In this document: one piece after another, positions 6,906-58,280 of the stretch
Layout: every line of letters begins with the position of its first letter
How positions within the stretch are numbered: the first letter of the stretch is position 1
Source of the DNA: Escherichia coli
GTDB lineage: Bacteria; Pseudomonadota; Gammaproteobacteria; Enterobacterales; Enterobacteriaceae
Assembly (NCBI RefSeq): GCF_024223415.1
Contig: NZ_CP100500.1
DNA: 64,000 nt
Reading direction: 5' to 3' (one strand)
Position numbers and translations under genes: made by a program
Notes under the pieces: generated by a model
Seen by the model: only the letters and a program-made list of their open reading frames with translations
Told to the model about the DNA's origin: nothing
Databases searched by the model: none

Positions 6906-8384
6906 ATGAGCTTACGTGAAAAAACCATCAGCGGCGCGAAGTGGTCGGCGATTGCCACGGTGATCATCATCGGCCTCGGGTTGGTGCAGATGACCGTGCT
7001 GGCGCGGATTATCGACAACCACCAGTTCGGTTTGCTTACCGTGTCGCTGGTGATCATCGCGCTGGCAGATACGCTTTCTGACTTCGGTATCGCTAACTCG
7101 ATTATTCAGCGAAAAGAAATCAGCCACCTTGAACTCACCACGTTGTACTGGCTGAACGTCGGGCTGGGGATCGTGGTGTGCGTGGCGGTGTTTTTGTTGA
7201 GTGATGCCATTGGCGACGTGCTGAATAACCCGGACCTGGCACCGTTGATTAAAACATTGTCGCTGGCGTTTGTGGTGATCCCCCACGGGCAACAGTTCCG
7301 CGCGTTGATGCAGAAGGAGCTGGAGTTCAACAAAATCGGCATGATCGAAACCAGCGCGGTGCTGGCGGGCTTCACTTTTACTGTGGTTAGCGCCCATTTC
7401 TGGCCGCTGGCGATGACTGCGATCCTCGGTTATCTGGTCAATAGTGCGGTGAGAACGCTGCTGTTTGGCTACTTTGGTAGCAAAATTTATCGTCCCGGTC
7501 TGCATTTCTCGCTGGCGTCGGTGGCACCAAACTTACGCTTTGGTGCCTGGCTGACGGCGGACAGCATTATCAACTATCTCAATACCAACCTTTCAACGCT
7601 GGTGCTGGCGCGTATTCTCGGCGCGGGCGTGGCAGGGGGATACAACCTGGCGTACAACGTGGCCGTTGTGCCGCCGATGAAACTGAACCCCATCATCACC
7701 CGCGTGTTGTTTCCGGCGTTTGCCAAAATTCAGGACGACACCGAAAAGCTGCGCGTCAACTTCTACAAGCTGCTGTCGGTGGTGGGGATTATCAACTTTC
7801 CGGCGCTGCTGGGGCTGATGGTGGTGTCGAATAACTTTGTACCGCTGGTCTTTGGTGAGAATTGGAACAGCATTATTCCGGTGCTGCAAATGCTGTGTGT
7901 GGTGGGGCTGCTGCGCTCAGTGGGGAACCCGATTGGTTCGCTGCTGATGGCGAAAGCGCGGGTCGATATCAGCTTTAAATTCAACGTATTCAAAACCTTT
8001 CTGTTTATTCCGGCGATTGTTATTGGTGGGCAGATGGCGGGCGCAATCGGCGTCACGCTCGGCTTCCTGCTGGTGCAGATTATCAACACCATTCTGAGCT
8101 ATTTCGTGATGATTAAACCGGTGCTCGGTTCCAGTTATCGCCAGTACATCCTGAGTTTATGGCTGCCGTTTTATCTCTCGCTGCCGACGCTGGTGGTTAG
8201 TTATGCGTTGGGCATTGTACTGAAAGGGCAACTGGCGCTGGGGATGCTGCTGGCGGTGCAAATAGCCGCAGGCGCGCTGGCGTTTGTGGTGATGATTGTG
8301 CTATCGCGCCATCCGCTGGTGGTGGAAGTGAAGCGTCAGTTTTGTCGCAGCGAAAAAATGAAAATGCTTTTACGGGCGGGGTGA
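6906..8384 (+). CDS. wzxC: colanic acid repeat-unit flippase
   Basis: 492-aa polytopic membrane protein at the conserved wzxC position. Confidence 0.85.
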   Translation: MSLREKTISGAKWSAIATVIIIGLGLVQMTVLARIIDNHQFGLLTVSLVIIALADTLSDFGIANSIIQRKEISHLELTTLYWLNVGLGIVVCVAVFLLSDAIGDVLNNPDLAPLIKTLSLAFVVIPHGQQFRALMQKELEFNKIGMIETSAVLAGFTFTVVSAHFWPLAMTAILGYLVNSAVRTLLFGYFGSKIYRPGLHFSLASVAPNLRFGAWLTADSIINYLNTNLSTLVLARILGAGVAGGYNLAYNVAVVPPMKLNPIITRVLFPAFAKIQDDTEKLRVNFYKLLSVVGIINFPALLGLMVVSNNFVPLVFGENWNSIIPVLQMLCVVGLLRSVGNPIGSLLMAKARVDISFKFNVFKTFLFIPAIVIGGQMAGAIGVTLGFLLVQIINTILSYFVMIKPVLGSSYRQYILSLWLPFYLSLPTLVVSYALGIVLKGQLALGMLLAVQIAAGALAFVVMIVLSRHPLVVEVKRQFCRSEKMKMLLRAG

Positions 8385-22695: not shown

Positions 22696-23511
22696 TTGTA
22701 TATGAAAGTCGCAGTCGCAATGTCTGTATATAAGAATGATAATCCTATATACTTAGAGAAAGCCATTAAAAGTATATTGAATCAAACATATAAAAATATC
22801 CATTTATATATAGAGGTCGATGGAGTCATATCTCCACAATTATATCAATGTTTATCCTCTTTTATCTCATGCTCAAATATTAGTATAAATTTTAATAGTG
22901 ATTGTAAAGGATTGGCATTTAGATTAAATAATATTATTGATAAGGTTATATTTGATGGAGGATATTCGTATATTGCAAGAATGGATGCTGATGATATATC
23001 TCGACTCGATAGGATTGAAAAACAAGTAATATTTATGCAGACCCATAAGGATATTTCTGTTGTTGGTTCTGATGTTCTAGAAATAGATGAGGATGATAAT
23101 TTTTTATTTTACAAAAAAATGCATTGTGATCATGAGATCATCGTTCGAGATATTATTAAGAAATGTCCAATAAATCATCCCTCAGCATTTTTTAAAATAT
23201 CTTCATTTTATATAGTTAGATATAATTCCACCTTGAAGAACACACAGGATTATTACTTGTGGATTGATTTTATTTATAATAATTTAAAGATCTCAAACAT
23301 CAATGAGCCTTTGTTAAAATTTAGAGTGAATAGAGATTTTTATTCACGGAGAGGGTTTGATAAAGCTATCAATGATGTAAAATCACGAATATATGCCTTG
23401 CGAAAGTTGAATTGCTATTCACTAAGGAATATATTTCATATATTAATGCTTTTTTTTCTTAGAGTATCTCCGACTGTAATAAAAAAAATTGCATACAATA
23501 GACTTAGATAA
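22696..23511 (+). CDS. glycosyltransferase family 2
   Basis: GT2 signature (VAVAMSVYKNDNPIYLEKAIKSILNQTY) and DADD motif; last gene before gnd. Confidence 0.7.
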   Translation: MYMKVAVAMSVYKNDNPIYLEKAIKSILNQTYKNIHLYIEVDGVISPQLYQCLSSFISCSNISINFNSDCKGLAFRLNNIIDKVIFDGGYSYIARMDADDISRLDRIEKQVIFMQTHKDISVVGSDVLEIDEDDNFLFYKKMHCDHEIIVRDIIKKCPINHPSAFFKISSFYIVRYNSTLKNTQDYYLWIDFIYNNLKISNINEPLLKFRVNRDFYSRRGFDKAINDVKSRIYALRKLNCYSLRNIFHILMLFFLRVSPTVIKKIAYNRLR

Positions 23512-23698
23512 ACTTCATCTACCACGCTATAGTCGGTAAGTGGTCTTCGTTTTTCTTAAAAAAGAAGCAACGTGACATATTTTTCTTTGTTACAGAAATA
23601 TTAAGATATCCATTATCATTTTTTCACATTTGATAAAACTTATCTTATATATCCAATTACATATATATATTGCGATAGAGTCTTGACAGGAGTAAACA

Positions 23699-25105
23699 AT
23701 GTTAAAGCAACAGATAGGTGTTGTCGGTATGGCAGTGATGGGGCGCAACCTTGCGCTCAATATAGAAAGCTGTGGTTATACCGTCTCTATTTTCAACCGT
23801 TCCCGTGAAAAGACGGAAGAAGTGATTGCCGAAAATCCAGGCAAGAAACTGGTGCCTTACTACACGGTTAAAGAGTTTGTTGAATCTCTGGAAACGCCTC
23901 GTCGCATCCTGTTAATGGTGAAAGCAGGTGCAGGCACGGATGCTGCTATTGATTCCCTAAAACCATACCTCGATAAGGGCGACATCATCATTGATGGTGG
24001 TAACACCTTCTTCCAGGACACAATTCGTCGTAACCGTGAGCTTTCTGCCGAAGGCTTTAACTTCATTGGTACCGGAGTTTCCGGCGGTGAAGAAGGTGCG
24101 CTGAAAGGTCCTTCTATTATGCCCGGTGGCCAGAAAGAAGCCTATGAACTGGTTGCGCCGATCCTGACCAAGATCGCCGCAGTAGCTGAAGACGGTGAGC
24201 CATGCGTTACCTACATTGGTACCGATGGCGCAGGCCACTATGTGAAGATGGTTCACAACGGTATTGAATACGGCGATATGCAGCTGATTGCTGAAGCCTA
24301 TTCGCTGCTTAAAGGTGGCCTGAACCTCACCAACGAAGAACTGGCGCAGACCTTTACCGAGTGGAATAACGGTGAACTGAGTAGCTACCTGATCGACATC
24401 ACCAAAGATATCTTTACTAAAAAAGATGAAGACGGTAACTACCTGGTTGATGTGATTCTGGATGAAGCGGCTAACAAAGGTACCGGTAAATGGACCAGCC
24501 AGAGCGCGCTGGATCTCGGCGAACCGCTGTCGCTGATTACCGAGTCTGTGTTTGCACGTTATATCTCTTCTCTGAAAGATCAGCGCGTTGCCGCATCTAA
24601 AGTTCTCTCTGGCCCGCAAGCACAGCCAGATGGCGACAAGGCTGAGTTCATCGAAAAAGTTCGTCGTGCTCTATATCTGGGCAAAATCGTTTCTTACGCC
24701 CAAGGCTTCTCTCAGCTGCGTGCTGCGTCTGAAGAGTACAACTGGGATCTGAACTACGGCGAAATCGCGAAGATTTTCCGTGCTGGTTGCATCATTCGTG
24801 CGCAGTTCCTTCAGAAAATCACTGATGCATATGCCGAAAATCCGAAGATCGCTAACTTGCTACTGGCTCCGTACTTTAAACAAATTGCCGATGATTATCA
24901 GCAGGCGCTGCGTGATGTCGTTGCTTATGCAGTGCAGAACGGTATCCCGGTTCCTACCTTTGCTGCTGCGGTTGCCTATTACGACAGCTACCGTGCTGCT
25001 GTTCTGCCTGCGAACTTGATCCAGGCGCAGCGTGACTATTTTGGTGCACATACTTATAAGCGCATTGATAAAGCAGGTGTCTTCCATACCGAATGGCTGG
25101 ATTAA
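23699..25105 (+). CDS. gnd: 6-phosphogluconate dehydrogenase, decarboxylating
   Basis: 468-aa ORF recognised as Gnd ([19 protein letters not shown]-binding motif); core GC content. Confidence 0.95.
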
Positions 25106-32826: not shown

Positions 32827-35197
<2,371 letters not shown>

Positions 35198-35202
35198 GGC
35201 GA

Positions 35203-36102
35203 TCACTCCATCATTTTCTCAATCGGCAGCACCAGGATTGAACTGGCACCCAGCGCTTTCAGTTTTTCCATCGTTTCCCAGAACAGGGTTTCGCTACTCA
35301 CCATGTGCATCGCTACGCGCTGTTGATCACCCGCCAGCGGTAGAATAGTTGGGCGTTCGGCACCTGGCAGCAGGGCGATGACTTCATCCAGGCGTTCGGT
35401 CGGTGCGTGCATCATGATGTATTTTGATTCGCGCGCCTGGATCACACCCTGAATACGGGTCAGCAGTTTGTCGATCAGCTGCTGTTTGGATTCTTCCATT
35501 TCGCCATCGCGTTGTATCAGGCAAGCTTTCGAGCGGTAGATAACTTCGACTTCGCGCAGGCCGTTTGCTTCCAGCGTGGCACCGGTGGAAACCAGATCGC
35601 AAATCGCATCCGCCAGTCCGGCGCGCGGGGCGACTTCAACAGAACCGTTCAGTAAGCAGGATTTAAAAGAGATGCCTTTCTGGTCGAGATAACGCTTGAG
35701 CAGGTGAGGATAAGAGGTGGCGATACGTTTACCGTTTAAGGAGAGCGGGCCGTCCCAGGCTTCATCAACCGGCGTTGCCAGCGAAAGACGGCAGCCGCCG
35801 AAATCCAGACGACGCAGGGTAAAGTAGCGTGGATCTTCACCCTGGGCGCGGCGGTTAAGCAGTTCTTCTTCCAGCACGTTTTCGCCGATAATCCCAAGGT
35901 CTACCACGCCGTCCATTACCAGACCGGGAATGTCGTCGTCACGCACGCGCAGAATATCAATCGGCATGTTTTCTGCCATCGCGATCAGGCGCTGGGTGTG
36001 AAGATTGATTTTAATGCCACAGCGCGCCAGTAATTCGCGTGAGTCATCACTTAAACGGCCGGATTTCTGCATAGCTATGCGTAAACGAGTGTTGTCTGTC
36101 AT
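35203..36102 (-). CDS. hisG: ATP phosphoribosyltransferase
   Basis: ORF 35203..36141; start at [15 protein letters not shown] gives 299 aa. Confidence 0.95.
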
Positions 36103-36149
36103 TTTCTTATTCCTCTTTAAACCTGTCTGAACCGTTATCAATCGCGCAA

Positions 36150-36190
36150 TAAAAAAGCCCCCGGAAGGTGATCTTCCGGGGGCTTTCTCA
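36150..36190 (-). terminator. his attenuator terminator hairpin
   Basis: On the minus strand, GCCCCCGGAAG-loop-CTTCCGGGGGC followed by a T-run, between hisL and hisG; coordinates approximate. Confidence 0.7.
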
Positions 36191-36247
36191 TGCGTTCATG
36201 CACCACTGGAAGATCTGAATGTCTTCCAGCACACATCGCCTGAAAGA

Positions 36248-36298
36248 CTAGTCAGGATGATGGTGATGATGGTGGTGTTTAAATTGAACGCGTGTCAT
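36248..36298 (-). CDS. hisL: his operon leader peptide
   Basis: Minus-strand mini-ORF translating to MTRVQFKHHHHHHHPD* (seven consecutive His codons), too short for the ORF track; coordinates approximate. Confidence 0.85.
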   Translation of the reverse strand: MTRVQFKHHHHHHHPD

Positions 36299-36544
36299 AA
36301 AAGTCTCTGTGAATGTTTATTCAACTGATGTCTTTTAACCTAAACCACTTTCACGTTAGAAAGCAAGGGCTTTTTTATATATTTTATGGCAATGGATTTG
36401 TTTAATGAATGAGCGGGGAAAGGAGGGGGCTAAGAGGACTGTCCTCTAACCTGACGGCACCAAAAATAGCGAAGCCTGGATTTTCGTCTCACTGACAATA
36501 TCTTGATCTACAAACTAATTAATAAATAGTTAATTAACGCCCAT

Positions 36545-36575
36545 CATTGTACAATGAGCTGTACATAAGAGGAGA
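36545..36575 (+). promoter_or_regulatory. yefM-yoeB operator/promoter region
   Basis: Two GTACA-core palindromic half-sites (TTGTACAATGAGCTGTACAT) immediately upstream of the yefM RBS and ATG. Confidence 0.45.
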
Positions 36576-36580
36576 TTGAT

Positions 36581-36832
36581 ATGCGTACAATTAGCTACAG
36601 CGAAGCGCGTCAGAATTTGTCGGCAACAATGATGAAAGCCGTTGAAGATCATGCCCCGATCCTTATTACTCGTCAGAATGGAGAGGCTTGTGTTCTGATG
36701 TCACTCGAAGAATACAACTCGCTGGAAGAGACGGCTTATCTACTGCGCTCCCCCGCTAACGCCCGGAGATTGATGGACTCAATCGATAGCCTGAAATCTG
36801 GCAAAGGAACGGAAAAGGACATCATTGAGTGA
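36581..36832 (+). CDS. yefM: antitoxin YefM
   Basis: 83-aa ORF recognised as YefM (Phd-like); 4-nt overlap with yoeB. Confidence 0.9.
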
Positions 36833-37083
36833 AACTAATCTGGTCTGAGGAATCATGGGACGATTATCTGTACTGGCAGGAAACAGATAAGCGAATTGTT
36901 AAAAAGATCAATGAACTTATCAAAGATACCCGCAGAACGCCATTTGAAGGTAAGGGGAAGCCAGAACCCCTGAAACATAATTTGTCAGGTTTCTGGTCCC
37001 GACGCATTACAGAGGAGCACCGTCTGGTATACGCGGTTACCGACGATTCACTGCTCATTGCAGCATGTCGTTATCATTATTGA
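36829..37083 (+). CDS. yoeB: toxin YoeB (ribosome-dependent mRNA interferase)
   Basis: 84-aa ORF recognised as YoeB. Confidence 0.9.
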
Positions 37084-37165
37084 ACAGATTCATTCATAGA
37101 ATGAATTGTCAGTTTTGATACGCTAGCGTAGCCTTATAGATCTAAGGTGTATCAGGAGATAACGG

Positions 37166-37990
37166 ATGAAAAAGGTCGCAATTGTCGGGTTAGGGTGGTT
37201 AGGCATGCCGCTGGCGATGTCACTTTCAGCGCGAGGCTGGCAAGTCACCGGGAGTAAAACCACACAAGATGGTGTCGAAGCGGCCCGAATGAGTGGCATT
37301 GATAGCTATCTGCTTCGCATGGAGCCTGAGTTAGTTTGCGATTCTGACGATCTGGATGCCCTGATGGATGCCGACGCGCTGGTCATTACGCTTCCGGCAC
37401 GTCGTAGCGGCCCCGGCGATGAGTTCTATTTACAAGCGGTACAAGAGTTAGTGGATAGCGCGCTGGCCCATCGTATTCCCCGCATTATTTTTACCAGCTC
37501 AACGTCTGTCTATGGCGACGCGCAAGGCACGGTGAAAGAAACCACCCCGCGTAATCCGGTAACCAACAGTGGACGAGTATTAGAAGAACTCGAAGACTGG
37601 CTGCACAATTTACCCGGTACTTCGGTCGATATTCTGCGTCTTGCGGGGCTGGTCGGACCGGGACGTCATCCCGGACGCTTCTTTGCCGGAAAAACCGCGC
37701 CTGATGGTGAACATGGTGTTAATTTAGTCCATTTAGAAGATGTTATTGGCGCTATCACTCTGTTGTTACAGGCACCTAAAGGCGGACACATCTATAATAT
37801 ATGTGCGCCAGCTCACCCTGCGCGTAATGTTTTCTATCCGCAGATGGCCCGTTTACTGGGGCTGGAACCTCCGCAGTTCAGAAATAGTCTGGACAGCGGC
37901 AAAGGTAAGATTATTGATGGCAGTCGGATTTGTAATGAACTGGGATTTGAATACCAGTATCCCGATCCGCTGGTAATGCCGCTGGAGTAA
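37166..37990 (+). CDS. yeeZ: NAD(P)-binding epimerase/dehydratase-family protein
   Basis: 274-aa ORF with Rossmann motif (VAIVGLGWLG); conserved position next to yefM-yoeB. Confidence 0.8.
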   Translation: MKKVAIVGLGWLGMPLAMSLSARGWQVTGSKTTQDGVEAARMSGIDSYLLRMEPELVCDSDDLDALMDADALVITLPARRSGPGDEFYLQAVQELVDSALAHRIPRIIFTSSTSVYGDAQGTVKETTPRNPVTNSGRVLEELEDWLHNLPGTSVDILRLAGLVGPGRHPGRFFAGKTAPDGEHGVNLVHLEDVIGAITLLLQAPKGGHIYNICAPAHPARNVFYPQMARLLGLEPPQFRNSLDSGKGKIIDGSRICNELGFEYQYPDPLVMPLE

Positions 37991-38035
37991 ACGATCACGC
38001 CAGCAGGACGCCGCATACACTGCAAGGGGGCGTGT

Positions 38036-38965
38036 ATGAAACCACTGCTGGATGTGTTGATGATCCTCGATGCCTTAGAAAAAGAAGGTAGTTTTGCGGC
38101 GGCGTCGGCCAAACTCTATAAGACGCCGTCCGCTCTGAGTTACACCGTTCACAAGCTGGAAAGCGACCTTAATATTCAATTGCTTGATCGTAGCGGTCAC
38201 CGCGCTAAATTCACCCGTACCGGAAAAATGTTATTAGAGAAAGGGCGGGAAGTTCTGCATACCGTGCGGGAACTGGAAAAGCAGGCGATCAAACTGCATG
38301 AAGGCTGGGAAAACGAGCTGGTGATTGGCGTGGACGACACGTTTCCTTTTTCTCTGCTTGCGCCACTGATTGAAGCTTTTTATCAACATCATAGCGTGAC
38401 GCGCCTGAAGTTTATCAATGGCGTACTCGGTGGTTCCTGGGATGCCCTGACTCAGGGGCGAGCGGATATTATTGTTGGCGCGATGCATGAGCCACCATCT
38501 TCCAGTGAGTTTGGTTTTTCACGGTTGGGCGATCTGGAACAAGTCTTTGCGGTCGCGCCTCATCATCCGTTAGCCCTGGAAGAAGAGCCGTTAAATCGTC
38601 GTATTATTAAGCGATATCGGGCGATTGTGGTGGGGGATACTGCGCAGGCAGGCGCTTCTACGGCCTCACAACTTCTCGACGAACAAGAAGCCATTACCGT
38701 TTTCGATTTTAAAACCAAGCTGGAGCTGCAAATTAGCGGCCTCGGCTGCGGCTATTTACCCCGTTATCTGGCGCAACGTTTTCTCGATAGTGGCGCGTTA
38801 ATCGAGAAGAAAGTGGTCGCCCAAACTCTCTTTGAACCCGTCTGGATTGGCTGGAACGAACAGACCGCAGGGCTTGCCAGCGGCTGGTGGCGAGATGAAA
38901 TTTTAGCAAATAGTGCGATCGCCGGTGTTTATGCAAAATCTGATGACGGAAAATCAGCCATTTAA
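38036..38965 (+). CDS. yeeY: LysR-family transcriptional regulator
   Basis: 309-aa ORF with N-terminal HTH and LysR substrate-binding region. Confidence 0.8.
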   Translation: MKPLLDVLMILDALEKEGSFAAASAKLYKTPSALSYTVHKLESDLNIQLLDRSGHRAKFTRTGKMLLEKGREVLHTVRELEKQAIKLHEGWENELVIGVDDTFPFSLLAPLIEAFYQHHSVTRLKFINGVLGGSWDALTQGRADIIVGAMHEPPSSSEFGFSRLGDLEQVFAVAPHHPLALEEEPLNRRIIKRYRAIVVGDTAQAGASTASQLLDEQEAITVFDFKTKLELQISGLGCGYLPRYLAQRFLDSGALIEKKVVAQTLFEPVWIGWNEQTAGLASGWWRDEILANSAIAGVYAKSDDGKSAI

Positions 38966-39231
38966 AGAAAAATTATTATGGCAAGCCTCTCATTCTCTTG
39001 TCATTTCCCCCCCATTTAGGCACAATGCGCCGCTGTCAAAAAATGACTAAAAACCGACGTTTCATCAGCGTCGGTTATTTTTTGCTTCAAACCAATCATT
39101 CATACCAAGAGGCCGGGCTTCGTACCGGATAGATATTTACTAAAAATCGACAGTTGTTGTCGCTGAGGAATCCAAAAAAATGGGGCAATTTTTTGCTTAC
39201 GCGACGGTTATCACCGTAAAGGAGAATGACC

Positions 39232-40590
39232 ATGTCGCATAACGTTACTCCAAACACCTCTCGCGTGGAATTGCGTAAAACGCTTACGTTAGTTCCGGTT
39301 GTAATGATGGGTCTTGCCTATATGCAGCCGATGACGCTGTTTGATACTTTTGGTATCGTTTCAGGCCTCACGGATGGTCATGTGCCGACAGCCTATGCGT
39401 TCGCATTGATTGCGATCCTGTTTACGGCTCTGAGCTACGGGAAGCTGGTTCGCCGCTATCCTTCTGCTGGCTCTGCATACACTTACGCCCAGAAATCCAT
39501 TAGCCCGACTGTCGGCTTTATGGTGGGTTGGTCTTCTCTGCTCGACTATCTGTTCGCGCCGATGATCAACATTCTGCTGGCGAAAATTTATTTTGAAGCT
39601 CTGGTGCCTTCCATCCCATCGTGGATGTTTGTGGTGGCGCTGGTGGCCTTTATGACCGCCTTTAACCTGCGTAGTCTGAAATCTGTAGCGAACTTCAACA
39701 CTGTAATCGTCGTGTTGCAGGTAGTGCTGATCGCGGTGATTCTGGGCATGGTTGTTTATGGCGTATTTGAAGGTGAAGGCGCTGGTACGCTGGCGAGCAC
39801 TCGTCCGTTCTGGTCTGGCGATGCGCATGTTATCCCGATGATTACCGGGGCGACAATCCTGTGCTTCTCCTTTACCGGCTTTGACGGCATCAGCAACCTG
39901 TCGGAAGAAACCAAAGATGCAGAGCGCGTGATCCCGCGTGCGATTTTCCTGACCGCGCTGATCGGCGGCATGATCTTCATCTTTGCAACTTACTTCCTGC
40001 AGCTGTACTTCCCGGATATCTCTCGCTTTAAAGATCCGGATGCGTCACAGCCTGAAATCATGCTGTACGTTGCGGGTAAAGCGTTCCAGGTTGGCGCGCT
40101 GATCTTCTCCACCATTACCGTACTGGCGTCTGGTATGGCGGCGCACGCAGGTGTTGCGCGTCTGATGTACGTAATGGGTCGTGACGGCGTGTTCCCGAAA
40201 AGCTTCTTCGGTTATGTTCACCCGAAATGGCGTACTCCGGCGATGAACATCATCCTGGTTGGCGCGATTGCCCTGCTGGCAATCAACTTCGACCTGGTAA
40301 TGGCAACGGCGCTGATTAACTTTGGTGCGCTGGTGGCGTTCACCTTTGTTAACCTGTCGGTCATCTCGCAGTTCTGGATCCGTGAGAAGCGTAATAAGAC
40401 GCTGAAAGATCACTTCCAGTATCTGTTCCTGCCGATGTGTGGTGCGCTGACCGTTGGTGCGCTGTGGGTTAATCTGGAAGAAAGCTCAATGGTTCTGGGT
40501 CTGATCTGGGCTGCTATCGGTCTGATTTACCTGGCTTGCGTCACCAAGAGCTTCCGTAACCCGGTTCCGCAGTACGAAGACGTAGCATAA
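39232..40590 (+). CDS. plaP: APC-family amino acid/polyamine permease (putrescine importer PlaP-like)
   Basis: ORF 39226..40590; start at [16 protein letters not shown] gives about 452 aa; polytopic membrane protein. Confidence 0.85.
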
Positions 40591-40768
40591 TCATCTTTTC
40601 TAATAATCAACCGGAGTCGAATGAACAGTTGGCTCCGGTTTTTTTATTCTTTTTTATCGACATCCTCATTAATAACCATTTGTTCTAATTTAGAGAATTT
40701 GGTTATTGGTCTGCATTCCACCAGTCATGAATAATTTCCCTATTAACATTCATCTGGTTAATTAATTT

Positions 40769-41729
40769 ATGTTTTCAATGATATTAAGCGGGCTAATTTG
40801 TGGTGCTCTGCTGGGATTTGTCATGCAGCGTGGGGGTTTTTGCGTTAATTCAGGCGGGCCTACTGACTTACGAAGCCGGGGCGTTCCCGTGGCTTGGTAC
40901 TGTTATAGGTGGGTATATCTTCGGGCTGGGAATTGTTCTGGCGGGTGGATGTGCCACCGGGACCTGGTATCGCGCGGGTGAGGGATTGATCGGCAGTTGG
41001 ATCGCGCTTTTCACTTATATGGTGATGAGTGCGGTGATGCGTTCTCCACACGCCAGTGGTTTAAATCAAACCTTGCAGCACTACACTACTGAACATAACT
41101 CTATTGCTGATACTTTTAATTTGTCTGTGTGGCCGTTGGTTGCCGTTTTGCTGGTGATAACGCTCTGGGTGGTGATGAAAGAGTTGAAGAAGCCAAAACT
41201 GAAAGTCGCGACCTTACCGCCGCGCCGAACCGGGATCGCTCATATTCTGTTTGAAAAACGCTGGCATCCCTTTGTCACTGCTGTACTCATCGGTTTGATT
41301 GCGCTTTTAGCCTGGCCCCTGAGTGAAGCAACCGGACGCATGTTTGGGTTAGGAATCACTTCCCCAACGGCCAATATTCTGCAATTTCTGGTCGCGGGTG
41401 ACGTGAAATACATTAACTGGGGCGTTTTCCTGGTGTTAGGGATCTTCGTGGGGTCATTTATTGCAGCCAAAGCGAGCCGTGAGTTCCGCGTTCGCGCAGC
41501 TGATGCACAAACAACAGTACGTAGCGGGTTAGGTGGTGTACTGATGGGCTTCGGTGCCAGTATTGCAGGTGGTTGCTCTATCGGTAATGGACTGGTTATG
41601 ACTGCAATGATGACCTGGCAGGGCTGGGTTGGCCTTGTATTTATGATTCTCGGAGTCTGGACTGCGTCCTGGCTTGTGTATGTTCGACCGCAGCGTAAGG
41701 CGCGACTGGCAACTGCTGCGGCAAATTAA
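40769..41729 (+). pseudogene. yeeE: yeeE-like (YeeE/YedE family thiosulfate transporter) gene split across two reading frames
   Basis: ORF 40769..40981 carries the N-terminal TM segment; ORF 40800..41729 (+1 frame, no ATG) carries the rest including both GGC(A/S)xG motifs; the span is 961 nt, not a multiple of 3. Confidence 0.6.
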
Positions 41730-41742
41730 GTAAGGTGTAAAG

Positions 41743-41970
41743 ATGGCGATTAAAAAGCTGGATGTGGTGACGCAGGTCTGTCCGTTTCCACTCATAGAAG
41801 CAAAAGCAGCACTGGCAGAAATGGCCAGCGGCGATAAGTTGGTAATTGAGTTTGATTGCACCCAGGCAACTGAAGCAATCCCACAGTGGGCGGCAGAAGA
41901 AGGACATGCCATCACCGATTATCAGCAGATTGGCGATGCTGCGTGGAGCATCACCGTTCAAAAAGCCTGA
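41743..41970 (+). CDS. yeeD: TusA-like sulfurtransferase
   Basis: 75-aa ORF with the TusA active-site CPxP motif (VCPFP). Confidence 0.85.
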   Translation: MAIKKLDVVTQVCPFPLIEAKAALAEMASGDKLVIEFDCTQATEAIPQWAAEEGHAITDYQQIGDAAWSITVQKA

Positions 41971-41975
41971 CCCAA

Positions 41976-42006
41976 CATTGTCCTCCGCCGTATCAGCGGC
42001 GGAGGC
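41976..42006. terminator. bidirectional hairpin between convergent yeeD and sbcB
   Basis: Inverted repeat CCTCCGCCG-TATCAG-CGGCGGAGG. Confidence 0.45.
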
Positions 42007-42012
42007 TTCAAA

Positions 42013-43440
42013 CTAGACGATCTCTTCCGCGTACTGCCAAAGCGCTTTTAACAGCGCCACTTTTTCTTTATCGTCGGCATACTGCTGCGCCAGCATCTGA
42101 ATCTCTTCTGCATAGCCTTGTAAAAACTCGGGTGTGAATACCTGGCGGCGGTGCTCCAGCCAACGTTGCTGCTCGGCATAATCCAGCGTCCCCGGGAAGT
42201 TGCGTGCCCGATAATTGAACAACAGCTTTTCAATCCGTTTATCAACAAAAGTGATATCCAGTGCCGGTAAATTACGCGGCTCGGTTTCCAGCACAATTTT
42301 CATTGCTGCACGATCGGCGTCACTGAAAAAGCCGTTATAAAGCTGTGCATCCACGTTATCTGAAGGCGTAAACGGTTCGGCTTCCGCGAATATCGCCACC
42401 ACTTTTTCACGCACTTGCGGATTTTCACGCAGAATTTTTAGGTTATCGAGGCAATGCTGACGATTAATTCCCAGTCGGTCGGCATCTTCCGGGCGTAGCG
42501 TATTCGCCTGGGCCAGTACCGGACATTTATTGATGTGCACCAGCTTAACCGGAACGGCGGCGTTATCGCCAAGATCGGCTTTTGCGGTATATAAACGCTC
42601 GCGCAATGTGTCGCTATCCAGCTCCAGTAATGGCGAAATGTCTCCTGCCAAATCCACCATAATTACGGCATTGCGATTTTCAGGATGCCACGCCAGCGGT
42701 GCCACCCAGCTGGTATTGCCACGCCATGCCCCAAACATTCCGGAAACGTGAACCAGGGGTTTCATCTGCGGAACATCAATCAACGCCATCAGTTTGTGTT
42801 TATTACGATGGGTAAAGAGATAATCAAACAGACGTGGCTGACGCGTTTTTACCAGTTTCGCCATCGCAATAGTGGCGTACACATCAGCCATCGCATCGTG
42901 GGCGTTGCTATGTTCAATACCATTCGCTTTGGTTAAATGCTCAAGGCGAAAGCTCGGTAGACCGTCATCATTTTCAGGCCAGTTTATTCCTTCCGGGCGC
43001 AGGGCATAACAGGCACGCATAACATCCAGTAAATCCCAGCGCGAGTTATCATGCTGCCAGCTCCAGGCGTAAGGATCGTAGAAATTACGATAAAAAACGT
43101 TGCGTGTGACTTCGTCGTCGAAACGCACATTGTTGTAGCCCAGAATACAGGTCTTCGGTACGGTAAAAAGCGAGTGAATACGGGCGGCAAACGTGGCTTC
43201 GTTTTCTCCTTTCGCCCGTGCTTCCTGCGGGGTAATACCGGTAATTAATACTGCTCCAGGCTGGGGTAAATAGTCATCCGCGGGCTTGCAGTAAAAGACT
43301 TCGGGTTCGCCGATGACATTGAATTCGTTATCAGTGCGAATGGCTGCGAACTGTGCAGGGCGATCTAACGCGGGGTGCGTTCCAAAGGTTTCGTAATCGT
43401 GAAACAAAAAGGTAGATTGTTGCTTACCGTCATTCATCAT
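42013..43440 (-). CDS. sbcB: exodeoxyribonuclease I
   Basis: ORF 42013..43512; likely start at MMNDGKQQSTFLFHDYETFG; DEDDh exonuclease. Confidence 0.9.
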   Translation of the reverse strand: MMNDGKQQSTFLFHDYETFGTHPALDRPAQFAAIRTDNEFNVIGEPEVFYCKPADDYLPQPGAVLITGITPQEARAKGENEATFAARIHSLFTVPKTCILGYNNVRFDDEVTRNVFYRNFYDPYAWSWQHDNSRWDLLDVMRACYALRPEGINWPENDDGLPSFRLEHLTKANGIEHSNAHDAMADVYATIAMAKLVKTRQPRLFDYLFTHRNKHKLMALIDVPQMKPLVHVSGMFGAWRGNTSWVAPLAWHPENRNAVIMVDLAGDISPLLELDSDTLRERLYTAKADLGDNAAVPVKLVHINKCPVLAQANTLRPEDADRLGINRQHCLDNLKILRENPQVREKVVAIFAEAEPFTPSDNVDAQLYNGFFSDADRAAMKIVLETEPRNLPALDITFVDKRIEKLLFNYRARNFPGTLDYAEQQRWLEHRRQVFTPEFLQGYAEEIQMLAQQYADDKEKVALLKALWQYAEEIV

Positions 43441-43648
43441 TAGGTTAAATCCGTTATTTCTGCTGTCTGCCAGAGTATCAAATATCACCGTGCTAATCAG
43501 CTTTAGCGCCACAATTTGGCAGCGAGTGGCAACAGATCATGTCAGATAAAAATGAGAGGGTAGTCACATTTTCTTGCACTTTATTCCAGCCAGTTCATAA
43601 GTATTTCCGTAAAAAGAACAGCTATTTGAAACTCCTGAGGGTTTGCTG

Positions 43649-48061: not shown

Positions 48062-48256
48062 TTACAGCAACTGGTGAGGGCTGGCATAAGTTGCCGGTGT
48101 TTCGGTAGAGTCACGGTCATCCACCACGCGGAGTGAATAACCTTTTTCAGCGGCCTTATTAATCAGTTCAGTGATATTAACACCATCAATGTCAACGGCA
48201 ATGTGCCCCATATCCAGCGCCTGTACGTTAACGCTGTCGGCTTCCAGTGTCATCAT
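48062..48256 (-). CDS. yeeW: prophage protein YeeW
   Basis: 64-aa ORF recognised as YeeW; start overlaps the cbtA stop. Confidence 0.7.
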   Translation of the reverse strand: MMTLEADSVNVQALDMGHIAVDIDGVNITELINKAAEKGYSLRVVDDRDSTETPATYASPHQLL

Positions 48257-48626
48257 TTCGCCTCCGGATACTTACCCAGGGTAATGTTATTTACCGTTCT
48301 GTAATTGTCGCGGGTCATCAGGCCGGTCGCCCTGCGAGCCCGGAGGATATCGATGCTGTTTATTAACTGAGAGCGGGTACAGGCGCTGAATCCCGGCTGG
48401 TCGGTAGCACCAGCGCGTATTTTTCCACGAGAAAGTTCACCGCATCACACAGTGAAATGCCTGCCTCAATATGCTGCTCAATCACACGTTCATCGGCAAA
48501 AGGTGTGTCATTCAGTGTGAGGCCATAGTGCTGGTCCAGCAGTCGGGACAGCAGTATCTGCCAGATTTCAACAGGAGACGGGCGAGAACTGGTCGCCTGC
48601 CCGGGTAATACAGGTAATGTTTTCAT
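48253..48626 (-). pseudogene. cbtA: frameshifted type IV toxin cbtA (yeeV)
   Basis: ORF 48363..48626 matches CbtA through …[10 protein letters not shown] and then diverges; the expected C-terminus ([40 protein letters not shown]) reads in another frame. Confidence 0.7.
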
Positions 48627-48714
48627 ACTGAAGATTTTCCTGATATGCAGATATAAAAATGGAAAAGTGGCGTGGTGAAAACACCAGGCCGTAGCAGAAG
48701 GCTATTCTGGAGAG

Positions 48715-49156: not shown

Positions 49157-49378
49157 TCAGTTCAGGGTGACGCTCATCAGCCGGACATACGGACCAAAAC
49201 TGTCCTTACGGCGTTCAGCAAACACGGCCAGCACACCGGGAATATCCTGCACTTCACGACCGGTATACGCTTCAGCACTGCCGTGCCAGCGGTATTTACC
49301 GGTACAGAACGGAAAAAGACGGGATGTCGGATGTTGTTGGTGAATACGCATGGCTTCACCACGGGTGATAATTTTCAT
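49157..49378 (-). CDS. yeeT: prophage protein YeeT (DUF987)
   Basis: 73-aa ORF recognised as YeeT. Confidence 0.8.
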   Translation of the reverse strand: MKIITRGEAMRIHQQHPTSRLFPFCTGKYRWHGSAEAYTGREVQDIPGVLAVFAERRKDSFGPYVRLMSVTLN

Positions 49379-57363: not shown

Positions 57364-58280
57364 TCAGAAGAAAATCCAGTTCCATACCGCGCGGGCAACA
57401 GAGACCACCGAGTCACGGACGGCGCGCAGAACCGTGCGTGCAACAGAGGCAATGCAGACGCTCTCCGCCGTGTCAAATATCCGGTCCACCGCACCGGTAA
57501 ACTGTTCACGGGCCTGAGACCGGACAGACTCCGTGCGCAGCTCGTCCTGCAGGCGGGTCATCAGGGGACTGGCGGCATGGTCGGGAAGTGCTGTCATGAG
57601 CGCACTGACCAGCGTATCCAGTTCCCAGCCGGTGCGGGCCGATACGGCAACAACCCGATGTACGGGCCGGAACAGACGGAATACCGCCTCCGTTTTTTCG
57701 CGAATGTTCTGTGCCTGTGCGGGAGAAGGCTGAATACCGGCCATATCCCATTCATGGCAGGGCTCCGTTTTATCGGCCTGCATCACCACAAACAGTACCC
57801 GCTGATGTCCCCGGTGCAGGATGTGTCGCCAGAAATACTCATCCACAGACAGGGCACGGTCATCGGCTTTAATCAGCCACAGTACCAGGTCCAGTTCGAG
57901 CAGAATGTCACGGTACAGGGCTTCATACTCTGCATCCCTGTCCCGGCTCTCGCCCACCCCACCCCGGGCAGGTCAGTGATAACCATGCTGTGACCATGGC
58001 CATTCAGACGGAAGCGCTGCACTTCCCGGGGGCCGGCGTGAACATCACTGACCGGGGTGACCTCCCCCTGAAACAGCGCATTACAGAGTGAGGATTTACC
58101 GGCCCCGCTTTTACCCATAATGCCAGGCACGGGTTCGTGACTGGTGAGTTTGCGCAGATGTTCCAGGATGTGACGGGAAAGTGAGTAAGGCAGGGAGGAG
58201 AGCGGTTTTTCAATTGCCTCAATGGCATCAGACGGATTCATACATGTATTCCCGGTGAAAAAAGACAAAACCCCGCGCAC
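57364..58280 (-). pseudogene. YeeP/YfjP/YkfA-family small GTPase, frameshifted
   Basis: N-terminal part with P-loop (GKSGAGKSS) and DLPGVG in ORF 57873..58280; C-terminal part in overlapping ORF 57364..57957 in another frame; break coincides with a tandem ACCCC-ACCCC repeat. Confidence 0.7.

Follow-up and report, generated by a model that had tools for sequence, protein, structure and literature searches.

A gene of the thiosulfate-transporter family, yeeE (tsuA), is split between two reading frames in the window analyzed here, a stretch of 64,000 nucleotides from Escherichia coli contig NZ_CP100500.1 (assembly GCF_024223415.1). The locus raises the question of whether the gene is dead, is rescued during translation, or is intact in the true genome and only damaged in the assembly. 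We consider inactivation of yeeE by a 98-bp deletion between 17-nt repeats, with a probability of about 0.93, to be the best explanation of the pattern.

A 98-bp deletion between direct repeats splits yeeE

The gene order plaP–yeeE–yeeD, followed by the convergent sbcB, is shared with K-12 and places the gene at the E. coli yeeE locus. With a DNA identity of ~98–99%, the locus is orthologous to that of K-12 YeeE/TsuA (b2013, WP_000492339.1), a thiosulfate importer of the YeeE/YedE family (PF04143, Sulf_transp) whose partner is YeeD/TsuB, and the naming of the gene in an earlier note made from the sequence is thus upheld by synteny and by alignment to the K-12 protein. Positions 40769–41729 (plus strand) span 961 nt and equal the 1,059-nt intact gene minus exactly 98 bp. 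The earlier note had arrived at about 98 missing base pairs on the premise of an intact protein of 352 amino acids, and both figures proved exact.

The open reading frame list contains two overlapping plus-strand frames at the locus, 40769–40981 (70 amino acids) and 40800–41729 (309 amino acids). Aligned to the 352-amino acid K-12 YeeE (from the RR1 locus L003:670–1728), the 70-amino acid product, which begins MFSMILSGLICGALLGFVMQRG, matches residues 1–22 only. The longest frame in the +1 register starts from GTG at 40800, reads GVFALIQAG...ATAAAN from 40833 onward and is 98% identical to residues 55–352; across both segments, the identity to K-12 is ~98%. The N terminus and the remainder of the protein thus lie in separate open reading frames, as the earlier note had said. 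The Pfam Sulf_transp domain is found in the 309-amino acid frame (E = 1e-103) but covers profile positions 33–310 only, compared with positions 1–310 for K-12 YeeE, while a Pfam search of the 70-amino acid product returned zero matches. No single reading frame of the window locus contains the full-length domain.

We aligned the window allele with the intact alleles of K-12 RR1, GDSC2227PM and ATCC 8739 (each 1,059 nt and encoding 352 amino acids) and with the near-intact allele of ET474. The alignment to intact K-12 yeeE, proposed in the earlier note as a check, rules out a single continuous frame: the only indel by which the window sequence departs from the intact alleles is one gap of exactly 98 columns. 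The segment lost from the window is flanked, in the intact alleles, by the copies of an imperfect direct repeat of 17 nt, AGCGTGGG[C/G]GTTTTTGC. Its two copies, AGCGTGGGCGTTTTTGC and AGCGTGGGGGTTTTTGC, are identical at 16 of 17 positions, start 98 nt apart and form the best direct repeat within the gene. The length of the deletion thus equals the repeat spacing, and one copy is left at the junction (Table 1). This copy has the right-hand G at 40835, placing the breakpoint within 40827–40834; the crossover therefore occurred in the AGCGTGGG half of the repeat and not in GTTTTTGC. The earlier note was right that a short direct repeat lies at the junction, although the motif it gave, GTTTTTGC, is only half of the repeat and not the half in which the crossover fell.

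Loss of exactly one repeat period with retention of one copy is what slipped-misalignment or short-homology deletion classically leaves behind, and spontaneous deletions of the slipped-misalignment type between short direct repeats are a classical, RecA-independent class in E. coli. The junction bears the signature of a repeat-mediated deletion, and its anatomy makes replication slippage or short-homology recombination the most likely mechanism; either process would have removed the 98-bp segment between the two imperfect copies and left a single hybrid copy behind. Like deletions of the classical class, the window allele has lost one repeat period and kept one copy, and the event is apparently recurrent on two haplotypes; in contrast to them, its mechanism is deduced from the anatomy of the junction.

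Table 1. Features of the plaP–yeeE–yeeD region in window coordinates
Feature	Coordinates	Strand	Basis or remark
Terminator-like hairpin after plaP, separating plaP from the yeeED unit	40609–40640	+	Scan: 12-pair stem followed by a T-run
yeeE/tsuA codons 1–22 (MFSMILSGLICGALLGFVMQRG), sole native part of the N-terminal frame	40769–40834	+	Protein alignment to K-12 YeeE; DNA alignment
Deletion junction, single surviving 17-nt repeat copy AGCGTGGGGGTTTTTGC	40827–40843	+	Intact alleles carry a pair of copies spaced by 98 nt
Rest of yeeE/tsuA, G55–N352 and stop, in the +1 frame as counted from the start codon	40833–41729	+	Alignment to K-12 YeeE
Out-of-frame read-through of the N-terminal frame, TGA at 40979–40981, total product 70 amino acids	40835–40981	+	Open reading frame list
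yeeD/tsuB, intact TusA-family sulfurtransferase, 75 amino acids, own AAGGTG ribosome-binding site	41743–41970	+	Open reading frame; Pfam TusA; upstream sequence

Upstream of the gene, plaP ends at 40590 according to the open reading frame list. A scan that detects consensus sites only found no consensus sigma-70 promoter upstream of yeeE.

Consequences for YeeE and its partner YeeD

The deleted length equals 3 × 32 + 2 nt, and the native frame is therefore left after Gly22, with codons 55–352 in the +1 frame. Translation from the native ATG would run off the YeeE frame at this point and stop after 70 codons, with the other 298 codons stranded. The deletion also takes residues 23–54, and in comparison with K-12 YeeE the locus is a pseudogene. 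In a complementation assay in a ΔcysPUWA ΔyeeE background, C25, C94 and C302 of E. coli YeeE were essential (Tanaka et al., PMC7449682), and in our alignment to the Spirochaeta thermophila YeeE structure (PDB 6LEO), the E. coli Cys25 lies opposite the S. thermophila Cys22. In the window, the native C25 falls in the deleted segment, while C94 and C302 lie in the stranded +1 frame. With Cys25 gone and the frame shifted, the YeeE of the window strain is almost certainly nonfunctional, and the loss of YeeE-dependent thiosulfate uptake suggested in the earlier note is a sound reading of the sequence; the loss would be silent unless cysPUWA were also absent.

The TusA-like partner is intact, as previously noted. 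Directly downstream of yeeE, yeeD encodes a complete TusA domain (PF01206, E = 2.6e-19, profile positions 1–70 of 70), and the RefSeq product in matching genomes is WP_000985277.1; a TusA-type partner is thus intact in both K-12 and the window. YeeD is needed for the YeeE pathway and adjoins the essential cysteine, and E. coli YeeE is nonfunctional without proper contact with YeeD (Ikei et al., PMC11073785). With functional YeeE no longer producible, YeeD would be orphaned. Its intactness is accounted for by the young age of the yeeE lesion, the pseudogene showing essentially no extra substitutions in comparison with the ET474 haplotype.

A gene that remains functional, either through +1 recoding at the junction or through reinitiation yielding an N-terminally truncated YeeE alongside intact YeeD, would be compatible with the preserved yeeD and with the 309-amino acid frame from GTG 40800, which keeps Sulf_transp positions 33–310. 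A G-GGT-TTT heptamer even arises at the junction, in the zero frame. This heptamer, however, would favor a −1 shift, into a frame that is closed by a TAA within a few codons, whereas the remainder of the gene is in +1; on inspection of the upstream sequence, GTG 40800 lacks a convincing Shine–Dalgarno sequence; and any product would be without residues 23–54 and hence without the essential Cys25. Given the wrong direction of the shift, the missing Shine–Dalgarno sequence and the missing cysteine, we rejected such a rescue as very improbable. A gene that normally uses programmed ribosomal frameshifting was likewise rejected: the gene has its unsplit length in 4,198 of the 4,203 gene-bearing genomes, and the junction heptamer favors a −1 shift into a stop.

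The same junction in other genomes and its origins

Using a 62-nt junction probe, of which intact alleles can cover at most 73%, we found full-length matches in 5 of 5,426 complete E. coli genomes: Combat11I9 (human urine, Hong Kong), 181.1 (turkey, Canada), 1916D18 (swine, China), GDSC2239PM (vegetable, China) and 2017.17.01CC (human feces, Viet Nam). In all five, PGAP annotates a 961-nt tsuA pseudogene, labeled "frameshifted," beside an intact tsuB, and these RefSeq pseudogenes have the same 961-nt locus and deletion junction as the window. The public protein collection records the exact 309-amino acid product for 89 contigs, under the name "YeeE/YedE family protein [Escherichia coli]." An exact look-up of the 70-amino acid out-of-frame peptide in the same collection found it absent, likely since gene callers choose the longer 309-amino acid frame. 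The literature searched yielded no specific account of a yeeE pseudogene or deletion in E. coli.

These matches bear on the reading that the split is a sequencing or assembly artefact and that the true genome has an intact 1,059-nt yeeE. Some assemblies do carry homopolymer frameshifts, and the G5 run of ET474, short by 1 bp, may be an example, although nothing specific speaks for an artefact here. The lesion in the window is instead a clean 98-bp loss between repeats, its junction recurs identically in five complete genomes that were assembled independently (one each from Hong Kong, Canada and Viet Nam, two from China), and its exact truncated product is on the 89 public contigs. We therefore rejected an artefact as scarcely credible: the 98-bp deletion allele is real, circulating and already annotated. 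Heterogeneity of the yeeE allele within this isolate is possible.

The carriers differ in their relationship to the window. The SNP profiles show Combat11I9 and 181.1 to be clonal with it, the identities over ~37–40 kb being 99.95% and 99.93%, respectively; the identity to Combat11I9 is 99.97% over window positions 1–20810. The window and Combat11I9 differ at 19 positions over 40 kb, and the latter is thus a related strain or record, not necessarily the same. Nine of the 19 differences are clustered within ~130 bp (49166–49298) of an island resembling CP4-44, and the cluster has the look of a small patch exchanged between paralogous copies of the island by recombination or gene conversion.

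In 1916D18 and GDSC2239PM, identity to the window is limited to short tracts near yeeE, ~40171–43509 (~3.3 kb) and 33995–43404 (~9.4 kb), respectively, and the flanks outside these tracts are 1–3% divergent. This pattern indicates an allele that was moved by recombination or persists as a mosaic remnant. Between the allele of 2017.17.01CC and that of the window there are 24 differences in 1.6 kb, and the SNPs that flank the junction most closely are at 40630 and 40979. In an alignment of nine sequences, the 2017.17.01CC allele agrees with the intact ATCC 8739 haplotype wherever the sequences vary, the deletion excepted, whereas over the same 1.6 kb the window allele and the ET474 haplotype, which is of intact length, are separated by no more than two SNPs, the 98-bp deletion and a 1-bp indel that belongs to ET474. 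The truncated product of the second haplotype was found on 2 contigs.

Because the identical deletion sits on two distinct haplotypes, it probably arose at least twice independently, as judged from the aligned alleles, and the occurrence on two haplotypes is as expected for a repeat-driven hotspot. The competing scenario, in which a single ancient deletion spread by descent and homologous recombination with no recurrent hotspot, draws on 1916D18 and GDSC2239PM: their short identical tracts mean that the allele has clearly recombined or is a mosaic remnant. However, the deletion of 2017.17.01CC lies on an ATCC 8739-type haplotype whose 24 differences are first met 200 bp left of the junction and 150 bp right of it, and a single origin would require a conversion tract of <350 bp into this second haplotype. 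We consider a single origin unlikely and independent deletion at the repeat pair the better account of the two haplotypes.

The wider region is itself mosaic, as illustrated by the five carriers differing in their O-antigen cluster. In the window, positions 1–27000 contain the colanic acid cluster (fcl to wcaM), galF and the O-antigen cluster, followed by gnd, ugd and wzzB; the O-antigen genes include a flippase, a polymerase, a glycosyltransferase, an ATP-grasp amidoligase and an aminotransferase.

yeeED and thiosulfate uptake across E. coli

The yeeE gene is not universal in the species. Even by sensitive blastn, K-12 yeeE was matched in only 4,208 of the 5,426 genomes. With a concatenated probe of the plaP and sbcB 3′ ends, we found these two genes ~70 bp apart in 1,212 of the 5,426 complete genomes, some with IS200C between them. 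A divergent yeeE in the ~1,200 genomes lacking a megablast match was considered and rejected, as distant blastn gave none and plaP and sbcB are adjacent in 1,212. The yeeED pair is wholly absent from ~22% of complete E. coli genomes.

Where the gene is present, other lesions occur. IS1 insertions in AHM9C68I and 2022CK-00450 are independent, and HH45 carries a larger yeeE–yeeD deletion. In ET474, the closest relative with a gene of normal length, the G5 run in the right-hand copy of the 17-nt repeat is short by one G (L002, locus position ~827, corresponding to window position 40832), leaving a gene of 1,058 nt that PGAP annotates as a frameshifted tsuA. This 1-bp loss could reflect a sequencing error in the homopolymer or a genuine second kind of lesion affecting this repeat.

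The occurrence of the deletion on two haplotypes, the IS1, 1-bp and larger lesions and the absence of yeeED from ~22% of genomes allow a broader reading, namely that yeeE is under recurrent and possibly adaptive inactivation in E. coli, import being costly in some niches and the repeat pair serving as a hotspot for switching it off. We regard this as a quite doubtful proposition.

The consequence of the lesion for growth is expected to be small. ΔyeeE strains show a growth phenotype on thiosulfate only when cysPUWA is deleted as well (PMC7449682), and 5,424 of the 5,426 complete genomes carry cysPTWA at ≥80% coverage; we therefore expect the loss to be silent in the window strain, whose cysPUWA genes lie outside the window and are presumed from their near-universal presence elsewhere. 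The strain would lose only the secondary, YeeE/YeeD-dependent route for thiosulfate, the primary CysPUWA route being essentially universal in E. coli. The loss is an ordinary one in a dispensable operon that is eroding generally in E. coli, already annotated, physiologically minor and probably harmless. The window locus should be annotated as a tsuA/yeeE pseudogene, as RefSeq does for near-identical genomes, and is of modest value for population genetics as a clean 17-nt-repeat deletion on two haplotypes, in a gene pair that is accessory-like (22% of genomes lack it).

Several other genes in the neighborhood are broken. On the minus strand of the window, cbtA (~48254–48627), which encodes the type IV toxin of the island resembling CP4-44, falls in two reading frames; the annotations of Combat11I9, 181.1 and 2017.17.01CC likewise give it as frameshifted, with the antitoxin gene cbeA intact. 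A GTPase-family gene (~57365–58242, minus strand), adjoining dynamin-family, RdcB-like and patatin-like genes, is also split, and its equivalent is frameshifted in the annotation of Combat11I9 and intact in 1916D18. In the same neighborhood, dacD of 1916D18 (L008, locus positions 22840–24006) and wzzB of 2017.17.01CC (L005, locus positions 7184–8161) each contain an internal stop.
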